A DNA stretch of 64,000 bases. Source: an uncultured Chloroflexia bacterium (GTDB lineage Bacteria > Chloroflexota > Limnocylindria > QHBO01). The translations under genes and the position numbers were made by a program. The first letter of the stretch is position 1, and each line of letters starts with the position of its first letter. The notes beneath the pieces are model-generated. The model worked only from the letters and a program-made list of their open reading frames with translations. It was not told the origin of the DNA and searched no databases. The stretch is from the NCBI GenBank assembly GCA_963720505.1, contig CAVRFT010000002.1:16121-80120 (forward strand), read 5' to 3'. Below, in pieces: positions 17,696-56,713 of this stretch.

Positions 17696-18988
17696 ATGCG
17701 CCAGAGCGACCTGACTGCTCTCCTCGAACGCCACGCCTCGCAGCATGGCGTGCCCGGAGCGGCTGTTGGGATCCTCCGCGACGGCGTGGCCACGACGTCC
17801 TACTCCGGAGTCGCCGACGTCGCGACGGGCGTCCCCGTCACGGCCGATACACGCTTCAGCATCGGGTCCCTCACCAAGTCCATGGTGGCGACGGTGGTCG
17901 CGCGACTGGCCGATGCAGGTCGGCTCTCATTGGAGGACCCGGTGGCGGCACATGTGCCCGAGTTGCGCGCGGTCGGCTGGGCCGGACACGCGACCATCCG
18001 AGACCTTCTCGCCAATCGCTCAGGGCTTCCCCTGACGGACGACCTCGAGTTCGGCTTCGAAGCCCGACCGGAACGCGACGACGGAGCGCTGTCGCGGCTC
18101 GCCCAGGACGTTGCCAGTGCCGAGCCGGCAGGCGCCTTCTGGTCGTACAGCAACGCTGGCTGGTGCCTGCTCGGCCGCGTCATCGAGACGGCCGCGGACG
18201 AAACCTGGGAGGACGCGATGCGGCGCCACCTGTTCGAAGCGCCGGGATGGACCAGACGACCTTCGCCACTGAGGATCCTTCCGTCCCACGCGCATCGGGC
18301 CACTCCGTCACCGCCGACGGTCCACGTCCGGTCGAGCCCTTGGTGGCTCGTGCCTACGGACCAGCCGGAGCGAGCGTCCTCTCCACCGTGCCCGACCTCT
18401 TGCGGTTCGCCGCGCCTGCATCTCGAAGACCCGTCGCTGGCGGCGCTGCGCGATGTGCATGCTGACGTCGCGATCCACGGCTGGTTCGATGCCTGGTGCC
18501 TCGGTTGGGCGTGGTTCGACTGGGATGGCGGTCAGGTGTGGGGCTGGGACGGCCTCATCAACGGCGAACGCTCCGTGCTGCGGATCGTGCCGGAGCACCA
18601 CGCCGCCGTCGTCCTGCTGACGAACAGCAGCAACGGCCGGGCGATGTATCGCTCGCTCTTCACGGAGCTGATGCCATCGGCATTCGGCATCACGGTCCCA
18701 CCGCTGCGCCTGGCGACCGGCAGCCGATGCGCCCGACGACCTCTCGCCGTACGCCGGCGTCTACGGATGGCCCGATCGACAGGTCCAGGTGACGGCCGCC
18801 GGGAGCACGTCTCCGAATCGAGAGCGAGAGCGGCGAGACGGAGGCGCGTCCGATCGACTCGCGGATATTCCTGGTAGACCCCGACGACCCGGACAACCCA
18901 ACGGTGACGTTCGGAGCATTCGATGCTGCCGGACGACCAACGGTTCTCTACGACGATGCTTTGGGGACTTCCCCGCCTCAGCGAATAG
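17696..18988 (+). CDS. Serine hydrolase, beta-lactamase class C family; frameshifted
   Basis: FSIGSLTKS (SxxK), LLANRSG, WSYSN (YxN). Confidence 0.85.
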
Positions 18989-19017
18989 GCGCCGCGACCG
19001 CGCGCCCCGTTGCCGCC

Positions 19018-19164
19018 GATTCCCAGTGTCGGCGGGACCAACGACGAAGAAGAGGCCGATTTCGCCCGAAACGGGCCCCAACTTGGTGCGGATTCCCATG
19101 ACCCGGGAATCGGCACCACGTTTCGCGGCGCTTACTTCTCCGTTAGTCCCCTGGGCTGGGAATC
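19018..19164. repeat. About 147-bp nested palindromic intergenic element, copy A (REP/MITE-like)
   Basis: Terminal IR GATTCCCA/TGGGAATC, sub-terminal GGGACYAACG/CGTTAGTCCC, central hairpin GGTGCGGATTCCC..GGGAATCGGCACC. Its reverse complement aligns with 41681-41823. Confidence 0.85.
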
Positions 19165-20380
19165 CCCGCCAAGCTGCCCTCGTCGCGCGCCCGACCAGGT
19201 ACCAGGTCTCCATCTCCCCCTTGCCCCTGACCTCGATGGTGCCCCGCGGCTCCAGCACGAACTCGTCCTTCAGCAGCTCGTAGGTCGACCGCGTGACCTG
19301 GATGCGGCCCGGCGTGCCGTGCGTCTGCATCCGGTCCGCGATGTTCACCGCATCGCCCCACAGGTCATACAGGAACCGCTTGCGGCCGATGACCCCGGCC
19401 ACCACCGGCCCGGAGTTGATGCCGATGCGCAGCTCCAGTCCCCGGTTCCCCATCGGGCCATTCGCAGCCACGACGCTGAGCATGTCCAGGCCGATCAGGG
19501 CCAGCGCTCGCGCGTGATCCTTCCGTGGCATGGGAATGCCGGCGGCAGCCATGTAGCAGTCGCCAATGGTCTTGATCTTCTCCACGCCGTCAGCGCTCCG
19601 CCAGCGCGTCGAAATGCCCGAACAGCTGGTCGAGCATCCCAACCGTGTCGGCCGGCGACAGCTTCTCGGCCATGGGCGTGAAGTCGGCGACATCGGCGAA
19701 GAGGATGGAGGCGGCGCTGAAGGAATCGGCAATTGGTTGCGGAATGGGCCTTCAACCGATCCGCAATCGAGCGTGGCAGCACGTTGAGCAGCAGGCTGTC
19801 CGCCTGCTCCTGCGCGTCCTGCCGCTGCTGCGCGAAGATCGCCAGCAAGGTGAACACGACCGCGCCGCCCACGATCACGTTCAGCGCGATCATGGTGGTG
19901 CTGAACCAGCGCGGCAAGGTGGATAGGCCGCCGGTCAGCTCGCCGGCGAATTCCCGCCCCCAGGAAGGCGACCGCGAAGAGGACGAACCAGCGGATGCTC
20001 GACCGGACGGTGCTGAAGACGAGGGCGCCCAACGGCCCCAGGATGCCCCAGATCCCAACGGCTCCGGAAGCCAGGAATCCGCCGGTGGGCCACATCGACA
20101 GGGTCGGCGCCAGGGTGATGGCCAGCAGCTGAATGAGCAGCACGAGCCCGAAGTTGCGCGTGAGCGCGAATAGGCCGATGGAGGCCGCCGAGATCGCGAA
20201 ATACGCATAGGCGACGACGCCGGATACCGCCCCCAGCGAGAGGTACAGGGTCCCCCACACCAGCGAGATCGGCAGGATGAGGACTGCCAGGTAGACCAGC
20301 AGCGCCTTGCGCTTCCGCGTCTCCTGGTCGTCGTTCGGATCGGCGCCGATGCGTCCCAGGCGATCCAGCAGCCACGTCAC
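19143..20380 (-). CDS. Membrane-anchored class III adenylate cyclase (about 6 TM); frameshifted, 3' end approximate
   Basis: TM region, then LFADVADFT, VEKIKTIGDCY, RIGINSGPVVAGVIG, YDLWGDAVNIADRM. Confidence 0.88.
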
Positions 20381-20485
20381 GATCCGAGCATAGCGATGGC
20401 CGAAGTCGCAACCCGCCATCGAGGCGCTATGAAACCGCGAGCTTGCGGCCCTATGCTGCATCGTCGTATGAGCCCATTTGAGCCG

Positions 20486-23400
20486 ATGGAGGCTCCCCTT
20501 CCTGTGCTGACCTGTGCCAATTGCCACACCCAGAACGACCCCGACCGGAAGTTCTGCGTGGAGTGCGGACAGCGCCTGGCCGCCGCCTGCCCGGTGTGCG
20601 GCACCGAGAACCCGACCGGCGCGAAGTTCTGTGGCGAGTGTGGAACCACGCTGGCCGAGGCGGGACAGGCAACGGCAGCGACCGGAACCCCGGCAGCCGA
20701 GGCCCCGGCGGCAATCGATCCGGTCGCAGAGCGCCGGCTCGTATCGGTCCTGTTCGTCGACCTGGTCGGCTTCACCTCCGCCTCCGAGCAACGCGACGCT
20801 GAGGACACTCGCGATCTGCTGACCCGCTACTTCGACCTTGCGCGGGAGACGGTCGGCCGCCACGGAGGCGTGATCGAGAAGTTCATCGGCGACGCGGTCA
20901 TGGCGGTGTGGGGCACACCGACCGCGCACGAGGACGACGCCGAGCGCGCGGTTCGGGCGGGCCTGGAGCTCGTTGCGGCGGTATCGGTCCTTGACGAGAG
21001 CCTCCGAGCCCGAGCCGGGGTCTTGACCGGCGAAGCGGCCGTGACCATCGGCGCAGGAAGGCCAGGGCATGGTCGCCGGGGACATGGTCAACACCGCGTC
21101 TCGGCTCCAGTCCGCGGCCGAGCCGGGCACCGTGCTCGTCGGCGAGTCAACCCAGCGGGCGGCCTCTGCCGCGATCGCATTCGAGGATGTGGGGACCAGG
21201 GAGCTCAAGGGTAAGGAAGAGCCCGTGCACGTCTGGCGCGCCGTGGCGGTCGTCGCCCGTCGTGGCGGCCAGGGGCGAACGGCGGCGCTCGAGCCTCCGT
21301 TCGTGGGGCGGGACGAGGAGCTTCGGCTGCTCAAGGAGCAGCTCCACGCAACGGAACGCGAGGGAAAGCCGCGCTTGGTGACGATCGTGGGCCAGGCCGG
21401 CATCGGGAAGAGCCGCCTGGCGTGGGAGCTGGAGAAATACCTGGACGGCCTGGTCGACACGGTGCTGTGGCACGAGGGCCGCTCCCCGTCATACGGCGAA
21501 GGGATCAGCTACTGGGCGCTGGCGGAGATCGTTCGCGGCCGAGCCGGCATCACCGAGTCGGAGGATCCGGATGCGGCCCGCGCCAAGGTCTCGGACATGC
21601 TCGCCGGGCTGACCCTGGAGCCGGCGGAGCGGCACTGGATCGAACCGCGACTGACCGGGCTGCTGGGGTTGGACGAGCTGCCCAGCGAGAGCCGGGAGGA
21701 GCTGTTCGCGGCGTGGCGCATGTTCTTCGAGCGGCTCTCCCAGCAGGCGACGGTCATGCTCGTGTTCTGGGACCTCCAATGGGCCGATCAGGGCCTGCTC
21801 GATTTCATCGAGCATCTGCTCGCCTGGGCGCGCACCTCGCCCATCTTCGTGCTGGCCGAGGCTCGGCCTGAGCTGTTCGAGCGTCGCCCGGGCTGGGGCT
21901 CGAAGGTTCGGAGCGCGACGTCGACCCACCTGGATCCGCTGTCCGAGGCCGATATGCGCCGGCTCCTCACCGGCGTTGCGCCCGGGCTCCCCGAGCAGGC
22001 GATCCGCGGGATCGTCGAGCGCGCCGAAGGCATTCCGCTGTACGCGGTCGAGACGATCCGCATGCTCATCGATCGCGGCGCACTGGTCGCGGACGGCGAG
22101 CAGCTGGTGCTGGCGGGCGAGCTCCCGCCGCTGGCGGTGCCGGAGACGCTCCATGCCCTCATTGCGGCCCGCCTGGATGCGCTGGCGCCCGAGGAACGGA
22201 CCCTCGTCACGGATGCGGCGGTCCTGGGCCTGAGCTTCACGATGCCGGCGCTCGAGGCCATCGGCAACATCCGCGGGGAGGCTCTCACCCAGCACCTCGA
22301 TGCGCTCGTCAAGCGCGACATCCTGGGTCTTGACGTCGATCCACTCTCCTCGGAGCGCGGCCAGTATCGGTTCGTCCAGGGCGTCGTGCGCGAGGTGGCA
22401 TACCAGTCGCTCGCCAAGCGAGACCGGCGTGCCAAGCACGTCGCCGCGGCCCGCTACTTCGAGTCGCTGGGCGAGGACGAGCTGGCAGGCGTGCTCGCCA
22501 GCCACTACCTGGCCGCCTATCGAGCCAATCCCTCCGGTGACGAGGCCGATGCCTTGGCAGCCCAGGCGCGCGTGGCCTTACGCGCGGCGGCCGACCGGGC
22601 AACGGCGCTTCATGCGCCGGTCGGCGCCCTGGACTACCTCGAGCAGGCGCTCGAGGTGACGAGTGATCCACTCGAACAGGCTGCGCTCCACGAGCGCGCA
22701 GGTTCGGCTGCCATCAGGGCTGCGCGGACGCAGGTCGGAAAGGACCACGGTCGCAGGGCGAGCGAGCTCTACGCCGAACTGGGCGATCGGCTGGGCGTGC
22801 TGCGGAGCCGTACCGTGCAGGCTCGGGTGATGCTGTCTGAGCACGGGGACCAGGCCACCGTCACCCTCATGCAGGAAGCCCTCGCCGAGGTCGCGGACCT
22901 CCCACCCTCGGCCGAGATCGCCAATGCGCAGGCGGAACTGGCTCGCGCCCTGATGCTCCAGGGCTCCCCCGAGGCCCTGATCTGGTGTGAGCGCGTGCTC
23001 GAGAACCCGCAGCTGACCAGCCAGAGCGTGCTCGTCCACACGCTGATCACGAAGGGCGCAGCGCTGTCGATCAGCACGTGGACGGTCAGCCGAAGCGGAG
23101 GCGGTCCTTCGCGGGGCCATGGTCCTGGCCGACCGGCTGGGCGAGCCGCATGCGATGCTGCGCGCGCGAAACAACCTGACCGGCATCGTGGATCAGCAGA
23201 GCACGCAGGGATCAATCGACCTGGCGCGCGAAGTCTTCGAGATCGGCCAACGATACGGTGAGCGCACGTGGGTGCAGCAGGCGATCGGTGGTCTTCTGAC
23301 CGGCGAGCTTCGAGATCGGTCGCTGGGACGACTGGCAGGAGGAAGCGCGGGTCGAGGCTCCCGAAGCGGCAGGGTTCTATCGGGCCTGGTTCGACGCCGA

Positions 23401-28303: not shown

Positions 28304-29031
28304 CTAGGGGAAGCGCGAACAGATCCTCGTGCAGGCCATGGACGGCTGCCATCGCGATCTGGGCGTACTCCTCCAGCGCATCTCGCGTGACGACATCCAC
28401 CAGCGTCGCACTCGGATGAGCTTGCGATCCATTCCACCTGATTCTTTCCCAGGGGGAAGGCTCGGCTGAGTCCTCGCCCGGCTTTCCGTGTGCTCGTATC
28501 GGAACAACGGAGCCTCCGTAATTAGACCGGCAGGACCACCAGGTGGTTGCCGTATCCGTATCCAGCTGCGATCCCTACGGCGGCGCTGATCACTTGCTCA
28601 AGCGCCGAGTGTGCTCGGTCGTTCCGGTCGTTGTGAGCCTCGACGACCGTGAATGCGTAGCGATCTGGGAGTGGCAGCTTCTTGGTGATGAGATCGACTC
28701 CGATCCATCCGGATCCGAGAGCGTCATTCGCAGCGCGCCCTTGGTAACCGGAACGGTCGGTTCCCTGGATAGTTGTCGTGGTCAAGGCAACCCACGGCTT
28801 GTCGGATGCGGCTTTGCACTCGATCACCATGGCCACTAGTACAGGGACATCCTCGTGCAGCCAGGCGACTACATCGGTCTCACGATTTGTCCCTTGCTGG
28901 ACGGGGTCGAGGTAATGCTGCCCTTGGTCCGCGAAAAAGCCGGCGGCCCGGAGAACCCGCGCCGTGTGGTACTCGAGCGGGAACCCGCCCTTCCTGAGCC
29001 AAGTGAGAATGCTTTCGGCGACTGGCTCCAT
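28304..29031 (-). CDS. PD-(D/E)xK nuclease-superfamily protein; frameshifted near 28520, end approximate
   Basis: GFPLE...RETDVVA...MVIECK...KPWV arrangement of catalytic E/D/ExK residues; visibly more AT-rich codons. Confidence 0.65.
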
Positions 29032-29151
29032 CGCGTCATGGTTGCACAAGGCCATTGGCCTAGTCGGCCGTAGTGGTTTTGAGTTTTTCCTGACGAGCCT
29101 GCGCCGCGGACACGGCCCGCTGTCCGAAATCTCTCCCTGCTGAGCATTCTC

Positions 29152-29802: not shown

Positions 29803-30228
29803 TGTCTCTCCTTACTCGTTCTGACCGGTAAGCGCGGGTTGGCGTTCTGAATAACCGCAGTCTGCGACGAGCAAAGAAGGATGGCAAGTAAGATTGTTAG
29901 ACCCTGTTGACTGTAGGCACCGTTAGTCTTTCCTACTCGAGGAGCGAACAAGCTGCAGAGCCGCGCATGCTGCGGGCTGCCCGGCCATCCTGGATCGCCG
30001 TAGACTTCGTCGGCCTAGACGGATGCGAACGGCCGGCGCTACTTGGCGGTCCGCCATTTGACGCGCATCTGGCCTTGCTCCTGAGCCGCTTGCTTGCTTG
30101 CATCGGAGTATAGGATTCCGATAACGGGAGGCTGCGATGCGCGAGCGAACCCCATGGTCGCCCTCACTGCCGATCGCTTGCGCTGAGCCACTGGCGAAAC
30201 CGGCCCGTTGCTGGGGAGGACTCGATCC

Positions 30229-30882
30229 ATGCGCCGTGCCCGCGTATCACTGTCACTCGCTGCCTCGGTCATTCTCGTCCTGACCCTGAGCAGCACCACG
30301 CTTGCAGCCCCGCATAAGGCGGCGGTCTACTCGCCCAACGCCCACGTCAACGGCGCGTCCCTGGTGGACCTCGCGGTGGCGTGGAACGATTGGGCCTGGC
30401 AGCCGGCCGATACCAACCCGCTCCTGAATCCTCGCTGCGAGGCGAGCGGGATCGGCAAGATCTGGTTCGCACCCGTCTCGATCGATGTCGCACAGGAGCT
30501 GGACTGCACGCTTCCGCCGGGTGGAAAGCTGCTGATCACCCCCGGTGGCTACGAATGCTCCACTGCGGAGGGCAACGGCGAAACGCTCGCCGAGCTCACC
30601 GAATGCGCCGAGACCAACTTCGCCAACGAGATCTGCTGCGCGCAGGTGATCGTCGATGGCGTGGAGCTCGCGAACCTGGATCCCTACGAGTTCCTGACGC
30701 CTGGCCAGGTGCTGGATGGACCAAACCTCTTCGGAGACGACCCGACGCTGTCGATCGAGCGCGGCTGGTTCATCCTCTTGCGCCCGATGAGCGTCGGCGA
30801 GCACGAGGTCTTCATCTACGACGAGGCCCCGAACTTCGGCCTCGTCTTCAGCACCACCATGCATATCACCGTGGCGCCCTGA
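30229..30882 (+). CDS. Secreted Cys-containing hypothetical protein
   Basis: GGAGG SD, signal peptide, W-x2-W..NP..C..WF..C..P pattern, LLRPMSVGEH. Confidence 0.75.
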   Translation: MRRARVSLSLAASVILVLTLSSTTLAAPHKAAVYSPNAHVNGASLVDLAVAWNDWAWQPADTNPLLNPRCEASGIGKIWFAPVSIDVAQELDCTLPPGGKLLITPGGYECSTAEGNGETLAELTECAETNFANEICCAQVIVDGVELANLDPYEFLTPGQVLDGPNLFGDDPTLSIERGWFILLRPMSVGEHEVFIYDEAPNFGLVFSTTMHITVAP

Positions 30883-41628: not shown

Positions 41629-41680
41629 ACGTGCTACCCGGTGGGAGCCACTATTGTACGCCTCGCTTGGTCTTGGCGCA

Positions 41681-41823
41681 GATTCCCAGGGGGCGGGACT
41701 AACGGAGAAGAAGCGGCCCAAACGTGGTGCGAATTCTCATCCCGCGGGAATCCCCACCAAGAAATGGCCTGCAAATGGCCCGATTCCGCCTCTTCTTCGT
41801 CGTTAGTCCCTGGGGTGGGAATC
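41681..41823. repeat. About 143-bp nested palindromic element, copy B (inverted relative to copy A)
   Basis: GATTCCCA..GGGACTAACGGAGAAGAAGC..central hairpin..GCCTCTTCTTCGTCGTTAGTCCC..TGGGAATC. Confidence 0.85.
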
Positions 41824-41848
41824 CGCGGCAACTTCGCGGTGAGGCCGA

Positions 41849-55643: not shown

Positions 55644-56528
55644 ATGAGCGGAGCAGAGAACAGGTACAGCACGCGATCGGCGAAGCCGCAGACCAAGAAT
55701 CTCGATGACCCCGACGAGAGGCTGACGTTCCCGAAGGGCGTTGTCACCAACGTTCGGTTGGGCGACCTGGTGGTCGGCCGGATGGTGCAGCAACCAGGCT
55801 GGCGTTGGTCGGAACAGGTGAAGCCCATCGCGAAGACCGAGAGCTGCCAATTCCACCACGTCGGGGTTGGACTGTCCGGCACCGCCATGATCCGCATGGA
55901 CGATGGCACCGAGATGACCATCCGCCCGGGCGACGTGTTCGACATCCCGCCTGGGCATGACCAGTGGGTCGTTGGTGACGAGCCCGCCGTTTCGATCATC
56001 TGGGGCGGTTGGCGCGGGTTCGGCAAGACCCCGGCTGGCGATCGGGTGCTGACCACCATGCTGATGACCGATATCACCGGATCCACCGACCGTGCCGCAG
56101 CGATGGGCGACGCCGCATGGGACCAGTTGCTGGAGCGGCACAACCAGCTGGTCCGCGACGTGATCGAGCAGTACCGCGGGCAGGAGATCGACACCACCGG
56201 CGACGGTTTCCTCATCGTCTTCGATGGCGCCGCTCGGGCGCTGCAGGCGGCCGCGGACATTCGCACTGCCGTCGGAGGGATCGGCCTGGAGATCCATGCC
56301 GGGATCCACACCGGCGAAGTGGAGCTGGTGCCGGGCAACATCCGCGGCCTGGCCGTGCACGAGACCGCCCGCATCATGGCGCTGGCGGGAGCGGGCGAGA
56401 TCCTGGTGTCGAGCACCACGAAGGAGCTCGTCTCGGCGCCCGGCGTCACGTTCGAAGACCGCGGGCGGCACGTGCTCAAGGGCGTGCCCGGCGAGCGGCA
56501 GGTCTACGCGGCCACGGTGGACGGCTGA
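55644..56528 (+). CDS. Cupin domain + Rv1900c-like class III cyclase fusion
   Basis: PGWRWS..CQFHH..PPGHD cupin; LMTDITGST, EIDTTGDGF, GLAVHETARI. Confidence 0.88.
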   Translation: MSGAENRYSTRSAKPQTKNLDDPDERLTFPKGVVTNVRLGDLVVGRMVQQPGWRWSEQVKPIAKTESCQFHHVGVGLSGTAMIRMDDGTEMTIRPGDVFDIPPGHDQWVVGDEPAVSIIWGGWRGFGKTPAGDRVLTTMLMTDITGSTDRAAAMGDAAWDQLLERHNQLVRDVIEQYRGQEIDTTGDGFLIVFDGAARALQAAADIRTAVGGIGLEIHAGIHTGEVELVPGNIRGLAVHETARIMALAGAGEILVSSTTKELVSAPGVTFEDRGRHVLKGVPGERQVYAATVDG

Positions 56529-56552
56529 CTGCCCGCGTCCGTCGGCCTCCGA

Positions 56553-56693
56553 GTTTCTGCCTGAGCAACCAACGGACACGAAACGGCTAAATCCGGGCGT
56601 TTGCGGCCGCAGAGGGTCTGGGAATTGCTCGTCAGCGGCAACAGACGACCAAGTTACGGGTGCTTCTTCTCCGTTGGTCGCCACAGGAGAAAC
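56553..56693. repeat. About 141-bp nested palindromic element, diverged copy D of the 19018/41681 family
   Basis: ACCAACGGA/TCCGTTGGT IR, shared GCTTCTTCTCCGTTRGT and AATCCGGGCGTTTGCGGCC segments; different terminal IR (GTTTCT..CTG/CAGGAGAAAC). Confidence 0.7.
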
Positions 56694-56713
56694 AGCAAGC
56701 TGCGGCCGCAGCG

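Follow-up and report, generated by a model that had tools for sequence, protein, structure and literature searches.

The window analysed here, a 64,000-nucleotide stretch of an uncultured Chloroflexia genome, contains three copies of an undescribed family of DNA repeats of soil Chloroflexota (Candidatus Limnocylindria). In genomes of the same taxonomic family, copies of these repeats bracket a gene whose product joins an XRE helix-turn-helix (HTH) to a predicted nuclease-like domain, and variants of the repeat are matched to paralogues of the protein. We consider it probable that the non-autonomous repeats, about 160 bp long, and the XRE-HTH/nuclease-like protein form a two-part system, of which the window copies are scattered solo members. 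In other words, the observed association of gene and repeat points to a partnership similar to that of REPIN and RAYT but with a different enzyme, the mechanism of which we infer.

To place the copies we used R1, a covariance model built from copies of the source genome only. An earlier sequence-only reading of the window had proposed three palindromic intergenic elements; all three are real, and the model extends each by about 9 bp at both ends. Copy A (19009..19173, plus strand; R1 match 125 bits) is a whole, solo element of subfamily 1, which has GATTCCC arms. Its parts, all on the plus strand, are a left site (19010..19038) made of outer arm TTGCCGCCGATTCCC, spacer AGTGTCGGC and inner arm GGGAC; a left conserved core, CAACGACGAAGAAG (19039..19052); a central site (19083..19118) that reads TTGGTGCGGATTCCC-ATGACCC-GGGAATCGGCACCA, with 14-bp arms and a 7-bp spacer; a right conserved core, CTTACTTCTCCGTTAG (19131..19146); and a right site (19146..19172) made of inner arm GTCCC, spacer CTGGGCT and outer arm GGGAATCCCCGCCAA. 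The outer inverted repeats occupy 19010-19026 and 19156-19172. Copy B (41672..41832, minus strand; 148 bits) is likewise a whole, solo member of subfamily 1. From its low-coordinate end it comprises, on the minus strand throughout, a terminal site (41673..41699; TTGGCGCAGATTCCC-AGGGGGC-GGGAC in plus-strand reading), a conserved core (41700..41713; TAACGGAGAAGAAG, plus-strand reading), the central site (41725..41759; TGGTGCGAATTCTC-ATCCCGC-GGGAATCCCCACCA), the other conserved core (41790..41806; CTCTTCTTCGTCGTTAG, plus-strand reading) and the high-coordinate terminal site (41806..41832; GTCCC-TGGGGT-GGGAATCCGCGGCAAC), with outer inverted repeats at 41673-41688 and 41816-41831. Copy D (56543..56704, plus strand; 115 bits) is a whole, solo element of subfamily 2, with GTTTC/GCAAC arms. 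Its plus-strand parts are the left site (56553..56569; GTTTCT-GCCTGA-GCAAC), left core (56570..56583; CAACGGACACGAAA), central site (56616..56650; GGTC..TTGC-TCGTCAGCG-GCAA..GACC), right core (56663..56676; CTTCTTCTCCGTTG) and right site (56677..56693; GTCGC-CACAGG-AGAAAC).

The architecture described from sequence alone holds in its details. The outer inverted repeats can be read directly in copies A and B, and the sub-terminal ACYAACG/CGTTRGT repeat with its GAAGAAG/CTTCTTCTCC tract and the central hairpin are present as proposed. Motifs of the GATTCCC type do run forward-forward-reverse-reverse in A and B, the inner forward motif of B being GAATTCTC, and copy D indeed combines the same body with other arms (GTTTCT..GCAAC / GTCGC..AGAAAC). 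The two copies that had been placed between convergent genes are A, between a beta-lactamase-family gene (plus strand) and a class III cyclase gene (minus strand), and D, between a cupin-cyclase gene (plus) and a DUF1905 gene (minus), all four assigned by Pfam. Copy B lies between two minus-strand genes, 17 nt past the stop of the upstream ORF and 44 nt ahead of the start of a UbiA-family gene. The statement that the window is free of transposases was upheld. Beside copy A, the open frame of the cyclase ORF (18761-19192, minus strand; 899 aa) runs through the whole element, and its Pfam domain stops about 19 nt short of the element; either a frameshift error has hidden the stop, or the frame is open by chance.

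Comparison of 58 unique copies aligned to the covariance model defines the anatomy of the family. RNAalifold on a MAFFT alignment returned outer pairs only, owing to subfamilies that were out of register, and the covariance model alignment was used instead. The element is about 160 bp long, has outer inverted repeats of 13-17 bp and contains no ORF. In order, it consists of an outer arm, a spacer of about 7 nt and an inner arm; the core YAACGGAGAAGAAG; one or two small variable hairpins; a central palindrome of 14-7-14 bp; a linker; the inverted core CTTCTTCTCCGTTRG; and an inner arm, spacer and outer arm. Each copy thus presents three palindromic arm-spacer-arm sites, with arms of 5-7 bp and spacers of about 7 bp, and the terminal hairpins are preceded by CCGTTRG. 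Subfamilies are distinguished by their arm sets, which include TTCCC/GGGAA with GGGAC/GTCCC; TTCTC/GAGAA; GTTTC/GAAAC with GCAAC/GTTGC; and GTTCC/GGAAC with GCATC/GATGC. The arms switch in concert between subfamilies, AAC...GTT is invariant, and 82% of the long inner helix is Watson-Crick paired, many positions showing two types of pair. The earlier suggestion of selection for structure is borne out in part: the arms of different subfamilies show covariation, a pattern that templated correction inside DNA palindromes could also produce. At some loci (L062, L035, C6:382595) the modules follow one another in tandem. Solo pieces also occur: a lone arm-spacer-arm palindrome (C3:842572-842600), an isolated left end that forms a tandem with a full copy (C6:382595-382650) and a lone right end (C4:10200-10240). 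At C6:~455540-455585, an operator-like palindrome, TTAGGTGACCGTATGGTCACATGTCAA, adjoins an element site and is largely conserved in four species (orthologues L049, L057 and L083).

In 34 of 44 copies of subfamily 1, versus 5, the spacers on the left and right have one polarity in common (GYGGGGY or its complement). Because the two spacers of a single copy resemble each other no more closely than do spacers taken from different copies of equal polarity class, we regard the shared polarity as a trait of the family and not as a duplication made at each insertion. The spacer comparison thus rules out target-site duplications or attL/attR sites as the source of the pattern, and the empty sites described below lack a palindromic target. 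A relationship between spacer polarity and replication direction was also considered and rejected, as GC skew was too weak and unrelated.

Could these elements act as RNA? The sequence-only reading had offered a structured ncRNA as an alternative, and selection at the RNA level, whether for such an RNA, a bidirectional transcription terminator or an mRNA-stabilising hairpin, would fit the strong predicted folding of copies A and B (-83 and -80 kcal/mol, z about -5), the location of copies at gene 3' ends and, in two cases, an ordinary GC-rich hairpin at the empty site in the source genome. However, both strands fold equally well, and stem mismatches are as often G-T as A-C (125 vs 145, p=0.25). 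Where the neighbouring genes are in tandem, the element is oriented along them eight times and against them ten times, an unbiased distribution. Rfam, proposed earlier as a check, returned zero matches at the gathering threshold and none at E<=1, and hairpin-plus-T-run terminators are absent within the elements, the one small site lying at the outer edge of copy D. The folding of both strands, the symmetry of mismatches, the unbiased orientation and the absence of internal terminators argue for an element that works at the DNA level and against an RNA gene. Mismatch symmetry, orientation and the Rfam result together led us to reject a function at the RNA level, and we hold this family of explanations to be very improbable.

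The family is dispersed through one lineage. Iterative nhmmer searches of the source MAG (2.53 Mb, 7 contigs, 70% G+C, 71% complete; the window is C2:16121-80120) found 21 element loci in the assembly, far beyond chance, which answers the genome-wide count that had been suggested as a check. A fourth copy on C2 (C2:86206-86367) lies 6 kb past the end of the window, and three of the 21 loci are on C4, a 10.3-kb contig that is a reversed near-duplicate of C3:771-779 kb. The HTH gene is on C4 too, where its frameshifts follow another pattern; the contig represents either a genuine duplication or else a haplotig or strain variant. Beyond the source genome, R1 matched 19 of 40 relatives (20 of 41 genomes in all, with E-values down to 7.5e-24). 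All the R1-positive genomes belong to one taxonomic family, and the 16 genomes that represent other families of the class gave no match. In a wider sample, 31 of 151 genomes of the family matched at E<=1e-8. A strict subfamily 1 pattern, sought in 185,579 species with one genome each, occurred only in MAGs named Candidatus Limnocylindria, 'uncultured Chloroflexia' or 'uncultured bacterium', and the element matched nothing in plasmid and phage collections.

Copies within a genome are strongly diverged, with a median identity of 0.56 and a maximum of 0.81, and we found no young, near-identical copies. Given these identities, activity must be either very slow or extinct. Many copies are orthologous in position across species and genera, at sites between conserved syntenic genes; orientations are mixed and spacings range from 2 to 22 kb. 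For 37 copies, each neighbour is no more than 200 bp away: convergent genes enclose 16 of them, tandem genes 18 and divergent genes 3, so that 34 of the 37 are downstream of at least one gene. At seven sites, relatives carry a copy where the source genome has 4-85 bp of unrelated spacer from which the outer arms are missing too. The search for empty sites and target duplications that had been recommended was thus fruitful in its first part only: orthologous empty sites exist at seven loci, and in these seven filled-versus-empty comparisons neither a target palindrome, a target-site duplication nor a clean end was visible. At three loci, the subfamily found at one intergenic site differs from species to species, with tandem or composite arrays in some cases. 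Copies have been gained and lost as whole units at the 3' ends of genes.

Class III adenylate/guanylate cyclase genes touch elements far above chance: in the source genome, which has about 22 PF00211 genes, such a gene is next to 4-5 of 18 element loci. The contact is usually at the 3' end of the cyclase gene, as for copies A and D (genes 18761-21460, minus strand, and 55644-56528, plus strand). GGDEF-EAL genes are the second commonest neighbours (7 of 112 flanking genes). The window also contains a c-di-GMP-II riboswitch (RF03169, 61.9 bits; 30118-30214, plus strand) upstream of an ORF that starts near 30208-30229.

The elements are associated with a gene: in G135, a 219-aa ORF with an XRE HTH lies between two R1 copies that are 970 bp apart. 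The proposal that copies might flank some nuclease gene other than a RAYT is borne out in this sense: the gene that they bracket encodes a protein that combines an XRE HTH and a nuclease-like domain. Homologues of this partner occur in 129 of 151 genomes of the family, at 1-13 per genome and mostly as open frames of about 220-260 aa. Among the best 30 homologue loci examined with R1, 17 have an adjacent copy and at least nine have a copy on both sides, one of these in the same genus as the source genome. The bracketing copies share one strand, which is opposite to that of the gene wherever the strand call is clear. As a control, the 36.5 kb around an unrelated small gene contained no R1 match. 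The paralogue loci that R1 did not match tell a similar story, as four of the five examined have, on their flanks, repeats that share the build of the family but not its arms; examples include a 144-nt direct repeat with 90% identity, and GTTTGCGC-N4-GCGCAAAC present three times upstream and once downstream.

The partner gene of the source genome (C3:778213-778873) lies outside the window, within a cluster of six copies (C3:760.7-779 kb), and its stop codon abuts the copy at C3:778874-779038. It is frameshifted, occupying three frames, which may be an assembly error or may mark a dead gene. In the closest public relatives (P0065, P0111 and P0021) a copy lies 1-8 nt past the stop codon, and P0111 has an upstream copy as well. 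The source genome encodes a second, intact and distant HTH paralogue (C3:245084-245695, plus strand; 38% identity), which lacks obvious flanking repeats within 450 bp.

The partner is about 218 aa long, with an N-terminal XRE HTH and a C-terminal domain of predicted restriction-endonuclease-like fold. At E<=1e-5 it matches 455 proteins, whose names, where given, are only XRE-family or helix-turn-helix regulator. Pfam, NCBIfam and PADLOC detect the HTH alone and cover the C-terminal domain with none of their models, and a sequence search of the PDB returns only 434-repressor-like proteins, HigA, HipB and controller proteins. The AlphaFold (AF2) model (pLDDT 92.3) assigns residues 8-74 to the HTH and shows an alpha-beta-beta-beta-alpha-beta domain after it. 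This is the topology of the PD-(D/E)XK core, which in that superfamily bears conserved acidic residues on strands 2-3. The HTH folds like controller proteins (C.BclI, C.AhdI), HipB and ClgR, and the Foldseek matches to the C-terminal domain are modest: AF1548 (1y88) and a chain of the R2 retrotransposon (8gh6), both of which we take to be restriction-endonuclease-like folds. In an alignment of 37 sequences, the invariant residues are E115, D123, R125, A126, D128, T144, R145, R154, K159, D162, N178 and R179, with E141 close to invariant; the lysine of the canonical (D/E)xK motif is out of its usual place. From one predicted model and the two modest structural matches, a PD-(D/E)XK-type nuclease is a plausible identity for the C-terminal domain.

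If gene and repeat do work together, a protein dimer would read the inverted arms of the three sites, the nuclease domain would nick or cut at these sites, and repair or replication would then copy, replace or remove whole elements. The outcome would be a small, old and vertically inherited population of elements, like REPINs kept by RAYT. Such cutting followed by repair would explain the gain and loss of whole units without duplications, the replacement of one subfamily by another at a single site, and the low, old copy numbers with vertical persistence.

Alternatively, the repeats could be orphan relics of an old MITE-, BIME- or ERIC-like repeat with a mobilising enzyme that is lost or unrelated, and the HTH gene would then be a favoured neighbour, or an autoregulator with an operator region from which the repeat arose. 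Arguing for this case, the copies are old and diverged, with no pair in a genome above 0.81 identity, and many hold orthologous positions across species and even genera. The partner homologue was not detected at E<=1e-5 in the carriers G013, G008 and G015, which are incomplete MAGs, the gene of the source genome is frameshifted, and tandem partial modules point to slippage and not to transposition. Counter to this, the geometry is fixed, with a copy 1-8 nt past the stop and both copies direct, across several genera and paralogues; the repeat variants match the paralogues; and the presence of different subfamilies at one site in different species needs ongoing turnover. We judge the relic explanation unlikely, while it deserves more weight than the others considered here. 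It is also the case that the bracketed XRE protein could simply be an autoregulator at its own operators.

In a further scenario, the elements would be operator arrays of a regulon: the XRE protein would act only as a regulator, its nuclease-like domain serving for dimerisation, and the roughly 20 modules would control neighbouring genes such as the cyclases. This would accommodate an HTH like that of controller proteins, HipB and ClgR, the three palindromic sites in each module and the enrichment beside cyclase and GGDEF-EAL genes. Against it, 34 of the 37 closely flanked copies are downstream of at least one gene and 16 lie between convergent genes; nor does this scenario sit well with the gain and loss of entire 160-bp units, with the coexistence in one genome of subfamilies with different arms, or with acidic residues of the C-terminal domain that are invariant or nearly so. 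We therefore see a purely regulatory role as distinctly unlikely, and return to the two-part system of repeat and nuclease-like protein as the preferred reading.

Known mobilising enzymes offer little to take the place of this protein. A flanking RAYT had been suggested, and the RAYT/IS200 domain (PF01797) was found in none of 41 genomes, with control genomes positive. IS110 and rve transposases are absent from the source genome and mostly absent from carriers, and among the Y1, IS110 and rve families that were searched there was no IS that shares the ends of the element and could be its parent. G003 and G009, the only genomes of the same genus that lack the element (E<=0.001), have 16/15 and 9/7 IS110/rve matches, respectively, where carriers have almost none. 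Three candidate partners were rejected: a single-copy NucS_C-like gene (PF01939, weak), which is free of elements within 1.5 kb in 12 genomes; a 340-aa gene that lies between copies in G024 and encodes a secreted protein without nuclease features; and a 177-aa ORF of the window (28522-29055, minus strand), a candidate PD-(D/E)xK protein that has no Pfam match and is not among the source-genome homologues of the partner protein.

Tyrosine recombinases merit separate consideration, as the modules could be attC-like or Xer-dependent, with arm-7 bp-arm units as recombinase core sites and same-polarity spacers as attL/attR. The central site has the 14-7-14-bp form of lox-type sites, spacer polarity is shared in most subfamily 1 copies, and the invariant AAC...GTT recalls the R boxes of attC. 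But two strong Xer-like tyrosine recombinases (PF00589) make up most or all of the set in genomes of the family, an integron integrase was not seen there, and in the source genome the PF00589 genes are not beside any element. In addition, the copies do not form co-oriented cassette arrays, the empty sites have no attB-like palindrome, and the shared polarity is a trait of the family. Recombination of this kind is, in our estimation, the least probable of the explanations, with hardly any weight. Compared with the attC boxes RYYYAAC...GTTRRRY, GACTAAC/GTTAGTC fits at 6 of 7 positions but lies on the inner stem and not at the ends, and unlike integrons and CALINs the elements show no arrays of short promoterless cassettes and no IntI was found.

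The sequence-only reading had favoured a non-autonomous DNA element of the REP/REPIN or MITE kind, and this main inference is supported. The family does not belong with IS-derived MITEs, integron sites or known RNAs, and it lacks the features that define REPIN/RAYT systems, namely a RAYT and a tagged REP. In the REPIN/REP-RAYT systems ('REPtrons') of Proteobacteria (PMC3116915; PMC3479197; PMC3733652; bioRxiv 10.1101/2021.07.10.451892), the REP is a 20-40-bp hairpin with a 5' GTAG or CGTC tag (PMC3733652). Our family is similar in its short palindromic intergenic repeats at gene ends, its vertical descent in one lineage, its chromosomal partner gene flanked on both sides by its own repeat, its variants matched to paralogues and its absence of target-site duplication. 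It differs in that the partner has an XRE HTH and a putative restriction-endonuclease-like domain instead of an HUH Y1 transposase; in a 160-bp unit with three sites and a core and without the GTAG/CGTC-tagged hairpin; in about 20 or fewer copies per genome compared with hundreds; and in symmetrical sites, which suggest recognition of double-stranded DNA.

Other bacterial repeats and regulators share parts of this picture. The BIMEs of enterobacteria are likewise mosaics of palindromic units and linker motifs, and modules are tandem at some of our loci, but the sequences are unrelated and REP units are absent here. ERIC, RU-1 and RU-2 (PMC2759123) and Correia elements are also imperfect intergenic palindromes of 100-170 bp, often in transcribed regions, that are present or absent between relatives and lack their own transposase; they have zero sequence similarity to our element. 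IS-derived MITEs (PMC10969869; PMC11602168) are, like our elements, small, non-coding and mostly intergenic, with terminal inverted repeats and a protein supplied in trans. Here, however, no target-site duplication or parent IS was found, and the candidate enzyme lacks a DDE, HUH, serine or tyrosine recombinase domain. Correia elements of Neisseria have a TA duplication and 26-bp terminal repeats, and we know of no case in which ERIC/RU or Correia elements bracket a dedicated gene. Controller (C) proteins of restriction-modification systems and XRE antitoxins of the HipB/HigA type resemble the partner in the fold of its N-terminal domain, and these known proteins bind palindromic operators as dimers. 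In our system the HTH is fused to what may be a nuclease, and the 'operators' are dispersed 160-bp modules. In the literature we found no description of an XRE-HTH/nuclease-like partner for bacterial repeats.

Until now, no proteins other than RAYT-type HUH enzymes have, to our knowledge, been linked to REP-like repeats. In an abundant, uncultured soil lineage, the RAYT role appears to be filled by another, uncharacterised family of enzymes. More tentatively, this may be a second, independent invention of the REPIN/RAYT lifestyle, in which a vertically inherited protein would maintain and now and then copy its own repeats, in which double-stranded cutting and then repair would replace HUH single-strand transposition, and in which the paralogues, up to 13 per genome, would each have co-evolved with their own repeat variant. 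If so, 'domesticated' replicators composed of a repeat and an enzyme arose more than once. The partners would also constitute a set of natural DNA-binding nucleases with readable palindromic targets of about 17 bp, and the paralogues with their repeat variants would offer a directly testable recognition code. The repeats that flank the roughly 455 related proteins account for many of the contig breaks and unusual intergenic palindromes of Limnocylindria MAGs.
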